Positions 33,659 through 39,217 of a stretch of 64,000 bases of DNA are shown here, piece by piece (the stretch's first letter is position 1; each line of letters starts with the position of its first letter). The DNA comes from Phycisphaerae bacterium (GTDB lineage: Bacteria > Planctomycetota > Phycisphaerae > Sedimentisphaerales > UBA12454), in contig JBAZHC010000008.1 in the NCBI GenBank assembly GCA_041652575.1, positions 46,022 to 110,021 of the forward strand. Reading direction: 5' to 3'. The position numbers and the translations under genes are program-made. The notes under the pieces are model-generated. The model searched no databases and was not told the origin of the DNA. It worked only from the letters and a program-made list of their open reading frames with translations.

Positions 33659-34678
33659 TTAAACATCCCTGCCGATAGCCTGCGCTATGGCTTTAAGCTG
33701 TGGCATAAGTTCCGAAAGAGTTGCGGGAGTAATTGATTGCGCCCCGTCGCTCAATGCGTGTTCAGGGTCGGGGTGACACTCGATAAGCAAACCGTCAGCG
33801 CCTGCCGCTACTGCCGCCCTGCACATCGCCGGCACAAGATGCGCATGACCTGTTCCGTGCGACGGGTCAACAACTACAGGCAGATGCGTCTTGTCTTTAA
33901 GCTCCGGCACAATCGCCAGCGCAAGAGTATTGCGGACATATTCCTCATAAGTTCTTATTCCTCTTTCGCAGAGAATAACCTGAGAGTTCCCCGCGTTGAT
34001 TATATACTCTGCGGCAAGTAAAAATTCATCGAGTTGAGCGCTCATCCCGCGTTTTAACAGCACCGGCTTTTTGACTTTTCCCAGCGCCTCGAGCAGCGGA
34101 TAATGCTGCATATTTCTGGCGCCGATTTGCAGAACATCTACATATTCAGCGACAATATCAATATGTTCGACCGCAACAACTTCTGTAATCACAGCAAGAC
34201 CGGTTTGCTTTTTAGCTTTTGCGAGAATTTTAAGTCCTTCCACGCCCAGTCCCTGAAAGCTGTAAGGACTCGTTCGCGGCTTGAATGCCCCCGCCCGAAG
34301 CCCGATACAGCCGGCAGCAGCGACTTTTTCAGCAGTCTGCATAAGCTGTTTTTCATTTTCGACAGAACACGGCCCTGCTATTACGCCTATTTTTTTACCT
34401 CCCATAGGAAAAGCATTTGCGCCGATTTTTATTTGTGAATATTCCCTTTTAACTTCTCTTGAGGCGATTTTATATGGCGCAAGTATCGGCACAATGCGTT
34501 CGACATTCGGAGCATTCTCAATTGCTCCTTTGTCAACCATCCGTTTGTCGCCAAGACAGGCTATAACCGTCCTGTTTGTGCCGACTATTATATGTTCTTT
34601 TAAGCCGAATTCATTTACCAGTTCCACGACATGTCGAACATCCTGCTCAGTTGCGACTGGTTTCATTACAATTATCAT
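33659..34678 (-). CDS. aroF: DAHP synthase, class I-beta with N-terminal regulatory domain
   Basis: IAGPCSVE, GAFKPRTSPYSFQGLG, QIGARNMQ, LLKRG, LCERGIRT, VDPSHG. Confidence 0.95.
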   Translation of the reverse strand: MIIVMKPVATEQDVRHVVELVNEFGLKEHIIVGTNRTVIACLGDKRMVDKGAIENAPNVERIVPILAPYKIASREVKREYSQIKIGANAFPMGGKKIGVIAGPCSVENEKQLMQTAEKVAAAGCIGLRAGAFKPRTSPYSFQGLGVEGLKILAKAKKQTGLAVITEVVAVEHIDIVAEYVDVLQIGARNMQHYPLLEALGKVKKPVLLKRGMSAQLDEFLLAAEYIINAGNSQVILCERGIRTYEEYVRNTLALAIVPELKDKTHLPVVVDPSHGTGHAHLVPAMCRAAVAAGADGLLIECHPDPEHALSDGAQSITPATLSELMPQLKAIAQAIGRDV

Positions 34679-35547
34679 TTTTTGTCTCCCATAACGGCCT
34701 TAAAAGCCTGCGGCAGATAATCCATAATATCCGTCGCGATTAAACTTATCTGACATTTCTCTTCCGCCGCCAAATCGCCGGCAAGACCGTGAACATAAAC
34801 TCCCGACACCGAAGCGTCAAAATTATCGAATCCCTGTCCGCACATCGCGGCAATTATTCCCGTAAGCACATCGCCGGCCCCCGCCGTCGCCATTCCCGGA
34901 TTGCCTGTAGTGTTAACATAAATTTTTTCAGCATCGGCAACTACCGTTTCGTGTCCTTTCAGCACAACAACAGCCTTGGCCGCTTTAGCAAATTCAGCAG
35001 CTACAGCTCCCCTGTCCACAGGCTCCGGTTTTCGCAAAAGTCCGTCCCAAAGTCTTTTCATTTCGCCCGGATGAGGTGTGAGGATAAGATTTGCTTTATT
35101 AATATCAGGCCAGTTTTTCAAAGCGGCAAGATTATTCAGTCCATCGGCGTCAATCAAAAGTCTCAACCCTTCCAGCCGCAGGAGATTTTCGAGTACTGCT
35201 TTTACGCCATTGGCAACGCCGACGCCCGGCCCAAATGCAACGATATCATTTTCCTCGACAGCTTTCAAAACCGCATCAATTGCTTTTGCACCGATTTTGC
35301 CAGACGAATCTTCAGCCAGAGAAATTGTCGTATAACAGGGTTCGATAGCCGCCACAATCGGCAATATACTTTGCGGCACAGCGACTCTGACAAGGCCGGC
35401 ACCGCTTCGCAGCGCGCTTTTGCCGGCAATTGCCGCAGCACCGCTGAAACCGACACTGCCCGCTATTATGCAAACCTTTCCGAAATCGCCCTTATGAGTA
35501 TCAATCGCTCTTGGTTTTATCTTCGGGATATTTTTTATTATCTGCAT
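34675..35547 (-). CDS. nnrD: ADP-dependent NAD(P)H-hydrate dehydratase (stand-alone)
   Basis: HKGDFG, AGSVGFSGAA, GAGLV, FGPGVG, IDADGL, TPHPGEM, VVLKG, NPGMATAGAGDVLTG. Start at MQIIK (35547). Confidence 0.94.
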   Translation of the reverse strand: MQIIKNIPKIKPRAIDTHKGDFGKVCIIAGSVGFSGAAAIAGKSALRSGAGLVRVAVPQSILPIVAAIEPCYTTISLAEDSSGKIGAKAIDAVLKAVEENDIVAFGPGVGVANGVKAVLENLLRLEGLRLLIDADGLNNLAALKNWPDINKANLILTPHPGEMKRLWDGLLRKPEPVDRGAVAAEFAKAAKAVVVLKGHETVVADAEKIYVNTTGNPGMATAGAGDVLTGIIAAMCGQGFDNFDASVSGVYVHGLAGDLAAEEKCQISLIATDIMDYLPQAFKAVMGDKK

Positions 35548-35567
35548 ATAAACTCCTTTATCGAAAC

Positions 35568-35596
35568 ATTTTACATATAACACAAGGTATGGTCAA
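35568..35596 (-). promoter_or_regulatory. Sigma70-type promoter for nnrD-aroF
   Basis: TTGACC (35596-35591), 17-nt spacer, TAAAAT (35573-35568). Confidence 0.65.
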
Positions 35597-35669
35597 TAAA
35601 AGAATTGACATCAATAGATGAGTTGACATATTGTTTATTTATCTATTCTTAAGATAGAAAGGCTTGACC

Positions 35670-37178
35670 ATGAAACAAAGTTTTGTAACCGTCACTGTTC
35701 TTGTTTTATGCAATTTGGTTTTTGCACAAACCACTTCTATTTTTCCGGCAGACAACGCTAAGCAGGTAAATCCGGACACGCATCTGATGCTTACTTTCCC
35801 CGGTGAGCCAACCTTAGGTGATTCAGGACAGATTCGCATTTATGACGCGGCAGACGACCGGCTTGTTGACGTTCTTGATATGAGCATCCCTGCCGGCCCG
35901 ACAACCAGCGACAAAACCTCTGTACCTTATACCGCAATTCCTTACAAATACGTCTCCGGCCGCTTAACCAATGCCAACACTAAACCGGGAACTCCATCCG
36001 GCACTGCACTCACCACGTCCGACAACTATCAGCTCACGATTATCGGAGGCTTCACCGACGCGTTTCACTTTTATCCGGTGATAATCCACGGTAGCGTGGC
36101 GACGATATATCCTCATAATAATCTTCTGGATTACAATAAAACATATTACGTACAGATTGACCCCGCAGTACTGACCCTAAGCGATGGCACTTTCTCCGGA
36201 ATCACAGGGAAAACAGGATGGACCTTCACAACGAAAAAAACACCACCATTAAAAAATAAACAGCGGCTCGTAGTCTCCGGCGAGGGCAAAGGTGATTTCA
36301 GCACCGTGCAGGGAGCGATAGATTTTCTCCCCGATAAAAATCCCAAACGTGTAACAATATTTATCAAAAACGGCACGTATGAGGAAATAGTATATTTTCG
36401 CAATAAGACAAACATCACCTTCCTCGGCCAGGATAGGAATAAAACTATAGTATGTTATGCCAATAATGAAGTCTTCAACCCGCATCCGTCAAATGTAGCC
36501 ACCAACGAGTGGCCGGGCACTTTCCCTTCCCGCCGTGCTGCGTTCATGGGAGATAATTCAAAAGGCATTCACCTGATAAATTTCACTATCAAAAACTTAA
36601 CGCGAGGTCAGGCCGAAGGTCTGCTTTTGATGGGCGAGCAAAATATCGTCAGCAATGTTAATATTGTAGGTTCAGGTGACGCCTTGCAGGTCAACGGCTC
36701 GGTTTACCTGACCGACTGCAAAATTACAGGCGATGGAGATATAATCCTCGGCCGCGGGCCTGCGTTCTTCAATAACTGCGAACTCATTTCAACCGGCGGC
36801 ACCTTTATGTGGATTCGCAACACAGCCGCTAACCACGGCAATGTCTTTTTGAATTGCAGGTTTCAAACTTTAAATGGACGCGAAACTGAAATCGCCCGTG
36901 CGCCCACCAATAAAGGCAATAATTACCCATACTGCGAAGCGGTATTAATAAACTGTGCCCTTTCAGGCATCAGCCCTGTCGGCTGGGGCCCTGTGGGCGG
37001 CGATACGTCGAATGTCCATTATTGGGAATGCAACAGCACTGATTTCGATGGTAAACCAATTGATGTGAGCCGGCGCAGCGGCGTTTCCAGACAATTGGAT
37101 AAAAAGAAAGACGCCGAGATAATCAAAAATTACAGTAATCCGGCTTATGTACTGGGCGGCTGGAAACCGAAGTTTTAA
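35670..37178 (+). CDS. Pectinesterase-like protein (CE8) with Ig-like N-terminal domain, no dockerin tail
   Basis: Signal peptide; GKGDFSTVQGAID, IKNGTYEE, GQAEG, GDGDIILG; colinear with the 3927-5798 paralog. Confidence 0.82.
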   Translation: MKQSFVTVTVLVLCNLVFAQTTSIFPADNAKQVNPDTHLMLTFPGEPTLGDSGQIRIYDAADDRLVDVLDMSIPAGPTTSDKTSVPYTAIPYKYVSGRLTNANTKPGTPSGTALTTSDNYQLTIIGGFTDAFHFYPVIIHGSVATIYPHNNLLDYNKTYYVQIDPAVLTLSDGTFSGITGKTGWTFTTKKTPPLKNKQRLVVSGEGKGDFSTVQGAIDFLPDKNPKRVTIFIKNGTYEEIVYFRNKTNITFLGQDRNKTIVCYANNEVFNPHPSNVATNEWPGTFPSRRAAFMGDNSKGIHLINFTIKNLTRGQAEGLLLMGEQNIVSNVNIVGSGDALQVNGSVYLTDCKITGDGDIILGRGPAFFNNCELISTGGTFMWIRNTAANHGNVFLNCRFQTLNGRETEIARAPTNKGNNYPYCEAVLINCALSGISPVGWGPVGGDTSNVHYWECNSTDFDGKPIDVSRRSGVSRQLDKKKDAEIIKNYSNPAYVLGGWKPKF

Positions 37179-37198
37179 TCGTCGCAGCCGGCTTTAGC
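37177..37198. repeat. Left direct repeat (att-like): displaced copy of the tsaD 3' end
   Basis: AATCGTCGCAGCCGGCTTTAGC is 21/22 identical to 38185-38206. On the minus strand it encodes AKAGCD(D)* like the tsaD C-terminus. Confidence 0.88.
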
Positions 37199-37226
37199 TT
37201 TAAGTTGAAAATTGGTTAATAAAGAT

Positions 37227-37254
37227 TTGACAAGTAAACGGAAAGTTTTATACT
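37227..37254 (+). promoter_or_regulatory. Sigma70-type promoter upstream of attI-like site (Pc-like)
   Basis: TTGACA (37227-37232), 16-nt spacer, TATACT (37249-37254). Confidence 0.7.
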
Positions 37255-37334
37255 TCTTAAAGAGACAACTTTTGAGGAAATAATGCAATTGGAGTTGTGG
37301 AAGAAAAACCCGAAAGTGGGTTTATCTGGAAATC

Positions 37335-37353
37335 ATATAAACATAAGTTAGGC
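37335..37353 (+). other. attI-like recombination site
   Basis: ATATAAA-CATAA-GTTAGGC: perfect GTTRRRY core with a 5-nt spacer, resembling class 1 attI CCCTAAA-ACAAA-GTTRRRY; 35 nt before the cassette ATG. Confidence 0.5.
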
Positions 37354-37388
37354 CAGTAACATTTCGCAAATACTGATGGAGGTGGGTC

Positions 37389-38039
37389 ATGGGATTAGTA
37401 GAACTGAAAGATGAATATCAAGTCCTCCGAGAAGAAATGCTTCATCGTTTTGAAAAATTGTATGATGTGGAGAAGTATGGAGTTGGTAGTATCCTAGCCT
37501 TGATTGGCTTTAGCGATACCCTCCATTGTGAGAAAATAATCATCTTGATAGTGCTCGAATCCTTGATCCTCATCCTCGGCATATTCGTTATGAATGAATT
37601 CATGATGATTTATCGGCTTGGCACATACATAGCGATTTTCAGCGAAGGTAAGGATGCGAATTCTGCCAAGTGGATTCGAATAAGTCGTCGAGGCCATGAC
37701 TGCTTACAGGCTATCAACGGCAACTTGCCAAAATTCAAGTTGAAAGTGGGGTTTCCATTTACATACGGATGGGGTTCTGATTCTGCGCAATTTGCTATCG
37801 CATTACTTGTTCTGCTGATGGCAAGCTGGGGGAGCTGGTTGGTTACGCGACCAGCATTTAACTGGCAAATCATTTTCCCTATTCTACCGCTTATAGGAAT
37901 TCTCTTTAATGTGCTATGGTTGGTTTGGGGGGTAAAAAAATACCGAAAGACAACAGAAGAGAATTGGATGAAAATCCAAAAGGCATGGGGGACCACCACC
38001 TTTCCTGACCCTTATGAGAATACAACGAACACGAAATAA
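37389..38039 (+). CDS. Hypothetical multi-TM protein (putative gene-cassette ORF)
   Basis: 216 aa, GGAGGTGG RBS, N-terminal EYQVLREEM helix followed by about 4 hydrophobic segments. Stop TAA lies inside the TAAC of the attC-like site. Confidence 0.8.
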   Translation: MGLVELKDEYQVLREEMLHRFEKLYDVEKYGVGSILALIGFSDTLHCEKIIILIVLESLILILGIFVMNEFMMIYRLGTYIAIFSEGKDANSAKWIRISRRGHDCLQAINGNLPKFKLKVGFPFTYGWGSDSAQFAIALLVLLMASWGSWLVTRPAFNWQIIFPILPLIGILFNVLWLVWGVKKYRKTTEENWMKIQKAWGTTTFPDPYENTTNTK

Positions 38040-38099
38040 CTTAACCATTGCACTGAAGCCAAGCTGCAAAATCGCGGCTGGTTTAGCTCCTCGTTAGCA
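38034..38099 (+). other. Degenerate attC-like site
   Basis: AAATAAC...TTGCAC...AGCC...GGCT...TTAGC-TCCTC-GTTAGCA, 66 nt, with TAAC/GTTA ends and an imperfect central stem. L-box pairing is poor. Confidence 0.45.
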
Positions 38100-38154
38100 T
38101 CTTTACCAAAAATATGAGGAAGGGATAATAGCACACCTATCCGCCGACAAATCA

Positions 38155-38173
38155 TTAGTCTTTGGTTTTGAGT
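38155..38173. repeat. Solo heptamer-array arm
   Basis: TTAGTCTTTGGTTTTGAGT is 17/19 identical to 13683-13701 (TTAGTCCTTAGTTTTGAGT). Confidence 0.55.
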
Positions 38174-38182
38174 GCCTATCTT

Positions 38183-39217
38183 TCAATCATCGCAGCCGGC
38201 TTTAGCCTCAATTGTCATATCGGCGAAAAGGCCTGCTTTGTATTTATGAAAGCCGAGCGAAGCTATCATAACTGCGTTATCCGTACAGTATTTTTTAGGC
38301 GCAACCAGCAGTGTTCTGCCGGTTTGCTGAGTCATTTTTTCAAGTTCGTTTCTTAAAAGCGTATTGGCCGCGACTCCGCCGCCGAGCAGAATTGTTTTCG
38401 CTCCGATTCTATCGGCAGCCATTTCAGCTTTCCCAACGAGAACATCTATAACAGCCGCCTGGAACGACGCGGCGATATCAGCGATTTCCTTTGGGTTCAT
38501 CTTTTCGATGCGATTTCCCCCCTTCATATCCTTGCCGCAGCAATGATAAAGAACCGCTGTCTTTAAACCGCTGAACGAGAAATCGAGCGAATCCTTCGCA
38601 AGCATCGTTCTGGGGAATTTAATCGCGGCAGGATTGCCGTCTTTTGCGGCCTTTTCAATACTCGGCCCGCCGGGGTATGGCAGATTTAAAATCGACGCGA
38701 CTTTGTCGAATGCTTCGCCCGCCGCATCGTCAATAGTCGAGCCGAGCAGATGAAGATCGAGAATATTTTTGCACTCATACAAACTCGTATGCCCGCCGGA
38801 AACAACCAGCGCAACGGCAGGAAGCTGTAAGTTCTGTTCATCCATCATTGCCGATTGAAGATGAGCGTGTATGTGATTTATCGCAATCAGCGGTTTTTCC
38901 AAAGCAATCGCAAGTGTCTTCGCGGCAGTCAGTCCGACGATAAGCGCAACGGCAAGCCCCGGCTGATTGGCGACAGCTACCGCATCAATCGAATCCTTAT
39001 CGAGTCCCGACTGTTTAATCGCCTGTTCTACAATCGGATAAATTTTTTCAATATGAGCCCGCGACGCGATTTCAGGCACAACACCGCCGTATTTCTGGTG
39101 AAGCTCTATTTGCGAAGAAATGACATTTGACAGTACTTCTGACCCATTGCGTACCATCGCCGCGGCAGTTTCATCGCAGCTTGTTTCTATACCGAGAATA
39201 TTAATGTCAGATTTCAT
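38183..39217 (-). CDS. tsaD: tRNA N6-threonylcarbamoyladenosine synthesis protein TsaD
   Basis: ILGIETSCDETAAA, YGGVVPEIASRAH, NHIHAH, VSGGHT, DDAAGEAFDK, YPGGP, FSFSGLKTA, GGGVAAN, CTDNAVMIA. Confidence 0.97.
   Translation of the reverse strand: MKSDINILGIETSCDETAAAMVRNGSEVLSNVISSQIELHQKYGGVVPEIASRAHIEKIYPIVEQAIKQSGLDKDSIDAVAVANQPGLAVALIVGLTAAKTLAIALEKPLIAINHIHAHLQSAMMDEQNLQLPAVALVVSGGHTSLYECKNILDLHLLGSTIDDAAGEAFDKVASILNLPYPGGPSIEKAAKDGNPAAIKFPRTMLAKDSLDFSFSGLKTAVLYHCCGKDMKGGNRIEKMNPKEIADIAASFQAAVIDVLVGKAEMAADRIGAKTILLGGGVAANTLLRNELEKMTQQTGRTLLVAPKKYCTDNAVMIASLGFHKYKAGLFADMTIEAKAGCDD
38185..38206. repeat. Right direct repeat (att-like), within the tsaD 3' end
   Basis: AATCATCGCAGCCGGCTTTAGC; see 37177-37198. 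Confidence 0.88.

Follow-up and report, generated by a model that had tools for sequence, protein, structure and literature searches.

We analyzed a 64,000-nt stretch of DNA (the window) from a Phycisphaerae bacterium (Sedimentisphaerales; UBA12454; assembly GCA_041652575.1, contig JBAZHC010000008.1, forward strand, positions 46,022-110,021) and describe a 1-kb insert between tsaD, the gene for tRNA N6-adenosine threonylcarbamoyltransferase, and a convergent gene for a CE8 pectinesterase. The insert lies exactly between the overlapping ends of these two genes, both of which are intact, and is bounded by a direct repeat of the tsaD 3' end. Its parts follow one another as promoter, tip of the integron integrase gene intI, attI-type site, a single cassette carrying the gene orfX, worn attC site and 81 nt without a homologue. 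By its sequence, the insert represents the decayed front end of an integron and carries one cassette, a "fossil mini-integron". The genome that holds it (G000; assembly of 2.98 Mb, 97% complete) was compared with those of relatives: orfX was looked for in 40 of them, and tsaD was counted in 41 genomes and found as a single copy in 41/41. Below, G-numbers denote the genomes compared, L-numbers loci, C-numbers contigs of the bacterium's own genome and X-numbers sequencing runs.

The insertion was established by comparison with congeners. In G004 and G005, CE8 orthologues (82-83% identity) abut tsaD directly and the stop codons overlap; the sequences of these empty sites (AAGTTTTAATCATCGCAGCCGGCTTTTGC... 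in G004, AAATTTTAATCGTCAGAGCCGGCTTTGGC... in G005) have the same arrangement as the left repeat copy. The 216-aa product of orfX had no match in the 40 relatives. Positions 37199-38180 together with one repeat copy therefore constitute an insert of 1008 bp, and a foreign insertion in this lineage is proven. A first-pass annotation of this DNA had already claimed an islet here. The insertion itself stands, with a precise empty site in two congeners and orfX in 0/40 relatives rather than in all of them, whereas the nature of the insert, a decayed integron front end with one cassette, had been missed.

The direct repeat, annotated as 22 bp with 21/22 identity and about 1 kb between copies, is present as described: AATCGTCGCAGCCGGCTTTAGC (37177-37198) and AATCATCGCAGCCGGCTTTAGC (38185-38206) are spaced 1008 bp apart. 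A repeat finder widened the pair to 31 nt at 27/31, and X-drop extension gave 26 nt at 24/26 (37173-37198 and 38181-38206) with a perfect block of 17 nt inside. By our own count, this core is bordered by 7/9 identical positions on the CE8 side and by about 9/17 (by eye) on the other side, an att-like pattern that would fit attL/attR anatomy. When the window was shuffled 100 times with its dinucleotides preserved, two matches never arose, and the 17-mer (at most one mismatch) occurred at two places only in the 2.98-Mb assembly. The repeat is thus neither a chance match nor a dispersed repetitive extragenic palindromic (REP) sequence, which the first-pass annotation had named as a competing explanation; with just two copies, a miniature inverted-repeat transposable element (MITE) was likewise ruled out. 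A genome-wide scan for other short flanking repeats was swamped by paralogues. REP-like palindromes unrelated to the tsaD repeat (GTAGGGTGGGCTTTAGCCCACGCG; TTAGCCCCCACCCCTGCGGTGGGGG; a 56-nt unit, TTAGCCCCCGGACC...) do occur in this genome at sub-kb to several-kb spacing, for example at C11:100356/100680/101689, C5:34878/35668/39692 and C6:90949/94028.

The two copies carry different alleles. The right copy is, as annotated, the true end of tsaD (...EAKAGCDD followed by TGA), and its alleles (TCAATCATC, TGA) match tsaD ends across the family (G023, G020, G014, G022 and others). The left copy reads ...KAKAGCDD followed by TAA; this TAA overlaps the one that ends the convergent CE8 gene, again as annotated, and the left-copy alleles (TTAATCGTC, TAA) are identical to those of G005. 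Beyond the right copy, the sequence read from the tsaD stop (AAGATAGGCAC) bears a faint likeness to AAGGCAC, the family-wide spacer between tsaD and nnrD. Both mismatches are silent for tsaD, one being a stop-to-stop change and the other a third-position transition. To take the synonymous change as a sign of selection would be a weak argument, given that the tsaD tail varies between species (GCED, GSDD, GVDD, TIDN). The tsaD end of this genome is also 24/26 identical to that of G004 and to that of G023 (by eye). Since 24/26 is thus the level seen between species, the similarity of the copies says little about age and is by itself no proof of a recent duplication in place. Sliding identity along tsaD gave no sign of a recombination tract.

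Table 1. Features of the insert and of its flanking genes in the window.
Feature	Position	Strand	Details
CE8 pectinesterase gene	35664-37178	+	PF01095, E 3.7e-21; TAA stop at 37176-37178, within the left repeat copy
Left repeat copy	37173-37198		tsaD 3'-end stub, minus strand ...AKAGCDD-TAA; alleles TTAATCGTC, TAA of the CE8-overlap type
Left arm	37199-37263	+	65 nt, no homologue found; carries the sigma70-like promoter
Sigma70-like promoter	37227-37232 (TTGACA); 37249-37254 (TATACT)	+	16-nt spacer; promoter scan 11/12; faces the cassette
intI 3' tip remnant	37264-37275	+	12 nt; GAC AAC TTT TGA (D N F stop)
attI-type site	37290-37353	+	Core GTTAGGC at 37347-37353; conserved in 67 loci
Integron-type gene cassette	37348-38093	+	G/TT at both bounds
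orfX	37389-38039	+	216 aa, all-helical membrane protein; only cargo
Decayed attC-like site	38040-38099	+	R''-like CTTAAC right after the stop, imperfect inner stem, R'-like GTTAGCA (38093-38099)
Right arm	38100-38180		No homologue found; last bases, read from the tsaD stop, AAGATAGGCAC
Right repeat copy	38181-38206		Working tsaD end, stop TGA; alleles TCAATCATC, TGA of the wider-family type
tsaD	38183-39217	-	Intact, 344 aa; PF00814, E 2.5e-95

We next turn to the interior of the insert. The attI-type site is built of direct repeats (GTTGTGGAAG and GTTTATCTGGAAA) around a hairpin (AAACCCGAAAGTGGGTTT), an inverted box (CATATAAAC) and the GTTAGGC core; it can also be described as two direct GTT(T)ATCTGG boxes with an inverted CCATATAAAC box. 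This layout presumably recalls the DR1/DR2/L/R organization of attI1, a resemblance that we take as a lead. The motif was found in 67 loci, namely the window and 66 siblings. Across them, the sequence between GTGTTATCTGG and GTTAGGC is conserved, and conservation is lost within four bases behind GTT, which stands at the junction in 59/67 loci. The first ORFs (open reading frames) downstream fall into 51 unrelated clusters among 64 and include SET, FRG, HEAT-repeat, N6-methylase and HlyD-like types, with an Mrr nuclease as second cargo in one locus. Canonical attC sites follow the cargo in sibling loci (for example CTCTAACAAGGCGCTCCACCGGACG...GCCGACGGTGAGCTTGATAGTTAGGC). The motif was seen in two order-level relatives, in 52 JGI metagenome contigs and, by exact pattern, in 14 GTDB species representatives, of which two match in the hairpin only. 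Apart from these two, the GTDB hosts are mostly Sedimentisphaerales or other Planctomycetota, joined by Desulfomonilaceae, a deltaproteobacterium and Ca. Tariuqbacter.

Remnants of intI tie this motif to integrons. In 12/67 loci a decayed intI C-terminus lies on the cassette strand and ends 32 or 124 nt before the motif hairpin. These fragments score best to TIGR02249 (132 bits for a 96-aa fragment, covering model positions 224-315 of 315, nearly twice the XerC score), and their nearest IntI relatives are found in Spirochaetes/Treponema, Gemmatimonadota and Synechococcus. The intI tip of the window aligns with the ...KSPVDNL-stop ends of decayed intI in L063 and L238; overall, the window and L063 share 81% identity over 91 nt. 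A TAA lies two codons upstream of the tip, so only the last codons of intI survive in the window. With its GTTRRRY core, its position at the start of the first cassette and the adjoining intI remnants in 12/67 loci, the motif has the marks of a putative attI, and we call it attI-type. Among 45 IntI relatives, none is an intact IntI next to such a site; all adjoining intI copies are decayed. At the family cut-off of TIGR02249 (265 bits) the bacterium's own genome holds no IntI, the best match being Xer-like at 86 bits, and none exceeded the cut-off in 18 other genomes bearing the left motif or the right element described below. The seven Phage_integrase matches of the genome all lie elsewhere, in line with the annotated lack of an integrase in the insert, and a heuristic scan of the genome detected no attC clusters.

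A right element (GGTAGAGGTGTCGATAGAGAAATATGAAAAGACCGCTATGCAATGG, in some loci as long as about 130 nt) is conserved in 16/67 loci, where it directly follows the R' box of the last attC. It was recorded at L058, L061, L066, L070 and L075-L081, and in the GTDB scan it occurs in Planctomycetota only. It is probably the original right flank of attI, and it is absent from the insert in the window. A search for "empty" platforms, in which the motif would join directly to the right element, returned 102 pattern matches, all due to chance. No homologue emerged for either arm of the insert: the left arm showed no similarity at E<=0.05 to the 66 other motif loci, the right arm none to the sibling right element (z 1.06) or to other loci, and a circular permutation, in which the right arm would resemble the upstream part of a long element, was rejected at z below 2. 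No similarity of the insert to phages or plasmids was found, and a viral origin was discarded, since the three IMG/VR matches covered the hairpin only and arose by chance.

The cassette assignment draws on the relatives of orfX. Its closest relative is P0002 (contig L034; 69% by BLASTP, 72% by phmmer), the sole close relative among 5.8 billion proteins, and the family comprises 51 cluster representatives among 1.84 billion proteins. DNA homology to L034/L035 (about 80%) runs from GTTAGGCC to ...CTCGTT and no further. In L034 the homology to the cassette starts exactly at GTTAGGC, which is there the R' box of a textbook attC (GCCCAAC...GTTTTCAGC...GCTGAAAAC...GTTAGGC; -25.6 kcal/mol, z -6.1). 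Behind the gene of a more distant homologue, P0003, stands a clear attC with an R'' that overlaps the stop codon; this gene is surrounded by small co-directional ORFs, one of them HicB-like. In L186, an attC follows the cassette. Given the G/TT bounds and the homologues with real attC sites, the cargo is most likely an integron-type gene cassette. The attC-like site behind orfX matches the attC sites of the homologues in position and boxes. No Pfam, NCBIfam, PADLOC or PHROG family was assigned to orfX. AlphaFold (AF2) gave a confident model of an all-helical membrane bundle (predicted local distance difference test score, pLDDT, 89) for which no fold match was found in the PDB. Against the gene of P0002 (72% identical), the ratio of nonsynonymous to synonymous substitution rates (dN/dS) was 0.60. 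The first 30 nt of L034 resemble a tRNA 3' end (GGTTCAATTCCCTGCACCGCCACCA), and the first cassette ORF lies about 200 nt further on; the contig end cuts this tRNA-like sequence, and ARAGORN made no call.

Some further features of the motif loci were recorded. In the window (37304-37346) and in all other motif loci, two mutually exclusive hairpins can form, AAACCCGAAAGTGGGTTT and GGTTTATCTGG-AAA-CCATATAAACA, which share GGGTTT. These alternatives might be relevant to the folding of single-stranded DNA or to an RNA leader, the site itself hardly varying, and there is a slim chance that the 60-nt site with its direct repeats, hairpin and alternative pairings serves as an RNA leader that controls cassette expression. 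Rfam searches were negative for the window (E<=5) and, at the motif, for 14 sibling loci. A structured RNA or riboswitch was rejected as a reading of the conserved block upstream, which corresponds to the conserved 3'-terminal coding sequence of intI. In the metagenome contig L215, positions 1524-1573, some 1 kb downstream of the motif, match the Rfam family Acido-Lenti-1 at 36.9 bits, 0.1 under the gathering threshold of 37 (E 3.6e-05). L055, L062 and L203 carry arrays of iteron-like units of about 18 nt with the palindrome TGTAAGCTTACA (GGCATTGTAAGCTTACATC...), 150-330 nt upstream of the motif. In L194, L197, L201, L228 and L234, the motif is immediately preceded by an attC-like palindrome of 85 nt, which is found again behind the first cassette(s). 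The R' of this palindrome apparently coincides with the GTT in the first of the motif's direct repeats, which suggests that recombination can take place at that upstream GTT as well. A 16-mer, CAGCACGGCGAGAAGG, stands once before the motif and once behind the first cassette, at -122/+1564 relative to the motif in L062 and at -237/+673 in L215 and L231. The recurrence of this 16/16 repeat in L215 and L231 marks it as internal to the element, and target duplication as a trait of the family was accordingly dropped.

The attI-type motif occurs in many unrelated contexts across phyla, usually directly after a co-directional gene. This distribution could be explained if promoter, attI-type site and cassette formed an active, integrase-free mobile unit that targets gene 3' ends and is moved in trans by a distant IntI or another recombinase. 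A second copy of the motif in the same genome (C26:635-1117, 39/46 identical) fits this idea, as it stands upstream of a different cassette, a 136-aa Zn-ribbon ORF. So does the presence of the same motif and ORF as a shared block in G054 (L054/L066; 82% over about 590 nt), there followed by a true attC and the right element. Contig C26 (4.7 kb) is broken at both ends, which suggests strain variation. We nevertheless regard an active unit of this kind as most improbable. The target repeat is confined to the window, the L062 16-mer is element-internal, no IntI above the cut-off was found in this genome or the 18 others with the motif or right element, and decayed sedentary integrons and CALINs (at least two attC sites, no integrase nearby) are the better reading of the siblings.

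A cassette that IntI inserts, whether at attI, at attC or at a genomic site, leaves its target unduplicated (bioRxiv 10.1101/2022.09.11.507474). Integron chemistry can therefore account for what lies within the islet, but not for its outer repeat. To account for the latter, we favor the entry of a foreign integron front end by a single crossover through tsaD-end homology, a reading to which we give about an even chance. A circular form would have brought in about 26 bp (17 perfect) from the tsaD 3' end of another family member, and one reciprocal (Campbell-type) crossover with the chromosome in the 17-nt core would have joined the foreign tail (TGA) to the resident gene. The resident tail, whose TAA is shared with CE8, would have remained as a stub at the other end of the insert. 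Through this exchange of tails, tsaD and the CE8 gene would both stay whole. The enzyme may have been a site-specific recombinase, lost since or acting in trans, or host homologous recombination may have acted on homology of minimal length. Three elements of this reading are inferred: a circular molecule as intermediate, its entry by one crossover, and a donor as the source of the right-copy alleles. Recombination between the copies is predicted to give the empty site ...GAAGTTTTAATC[G/A]TCGCAGCCGGCTTTAGCCTCAATTGTCAT... and the circle ...GCCTATCTTTCAATCATCGCAGCCGGCTTTAGCTTTAAGTTGAAA.... Any expression of the cassette would come from the islet's own promoter, and the islet would be unable to move by itself. 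The first-pass annotation had proposed a relic of site-specific integration. The insertion and the att-like repeats that rebuild the tsaD end are consistent with this proposal, whereas a cognate recombinase and recurrence at tsaD are lacking; site-specific integration is a reasonable mechanism rather than a demonstrated one.

Several results weigh against entry by crossover. The islet contains no integrase, no recombinase could be linked to it, and no second att site with the repeat core was found in the genome. Both arms are without homologues anywhere searched. The 60-nt attC-like site after orfX folds no better than shuffles (z +0.96 and -0.1) and for this reason appears decayed or atypical. 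Among 18 relatives, no island bounded by the tsaD-end repeat was seen up to 20 kb downstream, so the larger recombinase-bearing islands envisaged by the first-pass annotation did not materialize. The 22-mer had no match in JGI metagenome contigs, and none of the 66 sibling loci is flanked by a repeat of neighbor-gene sequence. Similarity of donor type outside the 26 bp is short and not significant alone. Neither the circle nor the empty-site junction was seen in sequencing runs, which were available as low-depth assembler contigs (Logan) of a kind that loses rare variants.

In the same runs, 31-mers of the islet were present in one only, which holds the whole region and is probably the source sample. 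In landfill runs X2-X5 the flanking genes were 100% identical at a depth of 2-4x and the islet was uncovered (gap 37132-38461 in X2). Gaps of about 0.9-1 kb occur elsewhere in these runs at 2-4x, and the absence of the islet from them is therefore not significant.

The singularity of the event in relatives, metagenomes and the 66 sibling loci, together with the lack of a recombinase, would also suit an illegitimate insertion with true target duplication. Here a staggered break or template switch at the CE8-tsaD overlap would have captured a decayed-integron fragment, the 26 bp between the nicks would have been filled in on both sides, and the two mismatches would be later drift; as tsaD is essential, only events that duplicate its stop region would survive. 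The arbitrary look of the fragment, with intI cut to four codons, attC decayed and the right element absent, agrees with such capture, as does the silence of both mismatches for tsaD. The anatomy of the repeat does not agree as well. Both mismatches fall within 9 nt at one end, beside the 17-nt perfect block, and the weak similarity beyond is attL/attR-like; the right-copy alleles match tsaD ends of the family rather than looking like random drift. Target duplications made by known bacterial transposases are, moreover, far shorter than 26 bp, and we know of no defined bacterial mechanism that yields staggered-cut duplications of this kind. We therefore consider illegitimate insertion unlikely.

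Across the family, tsaD (TGA) is followed after about 10 nt by nnrD, the gene for NAD(P)H-hydrate dehydratase. Within the genus this junction (window 34675-39217; L036, L037, L038, L040, L042) varies in its single insert. G000, G004 and G005 have the CE8 gene there (G004 with an extra 173-aa ORF), and G011 has a convergent S-adenosylmethionine (SAM)-methyltransferase gene; the insert of G009 measures about 730 nt and has no long ORF, that of G010 about 115 nt. Single accessory genes have thus settled repeatedly in the tsaD 3' flank in this genus. The other inserts are without a repeat and, by ORF listing in five relatives, without an integrase in the stretches read. The question whether tsaD is an integration hotspot, which the first-pass annotation had raised, thus receives a divided answer: the flank is variable in the genus, whereas its other inserts show neither repeat nor integrase in those stretches.

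This variability admits a further explanation, in which the left copy is a 26-nt stub of a neighbor's tsaD that was imported along with a CE8 gene overlapping tsaD in the donor and was joined illegitimately to an islet already downstream of tsaD. In accordance with it, the left copy is 24/26 identical to the tsaD end of G004 (by eye), the same as to its own right copy, and AAGATAGGCAC after the right copy is faintly like the ancestral tsaD-nnrD spacer. The order beyond nnrD (nnrD-DAHP synthase) is like that of G011 and unlike that of G004 and G005, and different congeners hold different single genes at the junction. We consider this course of events very unlikely, however. It requires two events and an illegitimate join, and a stub should decay evenly, yet the match is 24/26 and then 9/17. 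The spacing between nnrD and CE8 (about 80-85 nt) is equal in G000 and G005, which suggests one inherited CE8 insertion.

The locus is an example of how a streamlined planctomycete genome gains one accessory gene while two overlapping genes, one of them essential, remain unharmed. The main value of the work lies in an attI-type site that is sharply conserved among co-oriented integrons of Sedimentisphaerales and further bacteria from sediments; attI sites are usually hard to recognize. The site could be used as a probe or primer for first-position cassettes from anoxic sediments and groundwater, and to ask whether platforms with decayed intI still receive cassettes. The tsaD-nnrD junction provides a natural "landing pad" in the genus. 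If targeting of the tsaD end was driven by a recombinase, a new attB in a protein gene would join the short known list. It is also conceivable, though we think it very doubtful, that a self-contained, integrase-free expression module spreads between genomes and phyla by an integrase in trans or by host recombination, and that it reaches the 3' ends of conserved genes by carrying a copy of the tail of its target gene. If true, integron platforms, beyond cassettes alone, would have a new way to spread.

CIME relics (ICESt1/3-derived, at the fda 3' end) and pseudo-SCC elements (at rlmH) are att-flanked, recombinase-less elements at the 3' ends of housekeeping genes. The islet resembles them in being short and integrase-less, with imperfect direct repeats (of the order of 15-30 bp) that hold the last codons of an intact conserved gene; its putative attL and attR rebuild the gene end (26 bp, 17 perfect). 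It differs from them in having no known cognate integrase or parent, no recurrence at tsaD in relatives, and a cargo of integron fragments. The neighborhood of tsaD is known as an attachment region from the Macrococcus prophages phiMG1 and phiME1, which attach "between TsaD and ABC transporter" with att sites of 23-32 bp (PMC6008420, Table 3), a length similar to that found here. Those are 40-50-kb prophages of Firmicutes with integrases and unrelated att sites, whereas the present relic is planctomycete, 1 kb long and integrase-less. Our literature search returned no report of integration into the tsaD coding end.

On its integron side, the islet can be compared with CALINs and SALINs, cassettes and attC sites without an integron integrase (Cury et al. 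2016, PMC4889954; Loot et al., bioRxiv 10.1101/2022.09.11.507474). Isolated cassettes and integrase-less CALINs are common (bioRxiv 10.1101/2022.09.11.507474). Like them, the islet has a single cassette with a putative attC-type site, no functional intI nearby and an orphan small protein as cargo, and, as in a minority of CALINs, an intI remnant adjoins the array. It differs in keeping an attI-type site and the intI tip, in an attC that is barely recognizable, in a length of only 1 kb and in its flanking 26-bp repeat of neighbor-gene ends, which IntI cassette insertion does not produce. It counts as a SALIN (one attC, no integrase nearby) only if the decayed attC is accepted. With 12 nt of intI remaining, it falls short of a full integron. 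In the atypical integrons of Treponema, intI is transcribed toward attI and the cassettes (PMC3607928). The 12 sibling loci with an intI C-terminus 32 or 124 nt upstream on the cassette strand share this co-orientation, and we read the islet as the decayed front end of an integron of this layout; the 45 IntI relatives lack the present attI-type sequence, and no intact integron with this attI was found. Taken together, these comparisons make the islet a relic of a known kind, a decayed integron or SALIN-like element that sits between att-like repeats at the 3' end of a gene, and not a member of a new class.

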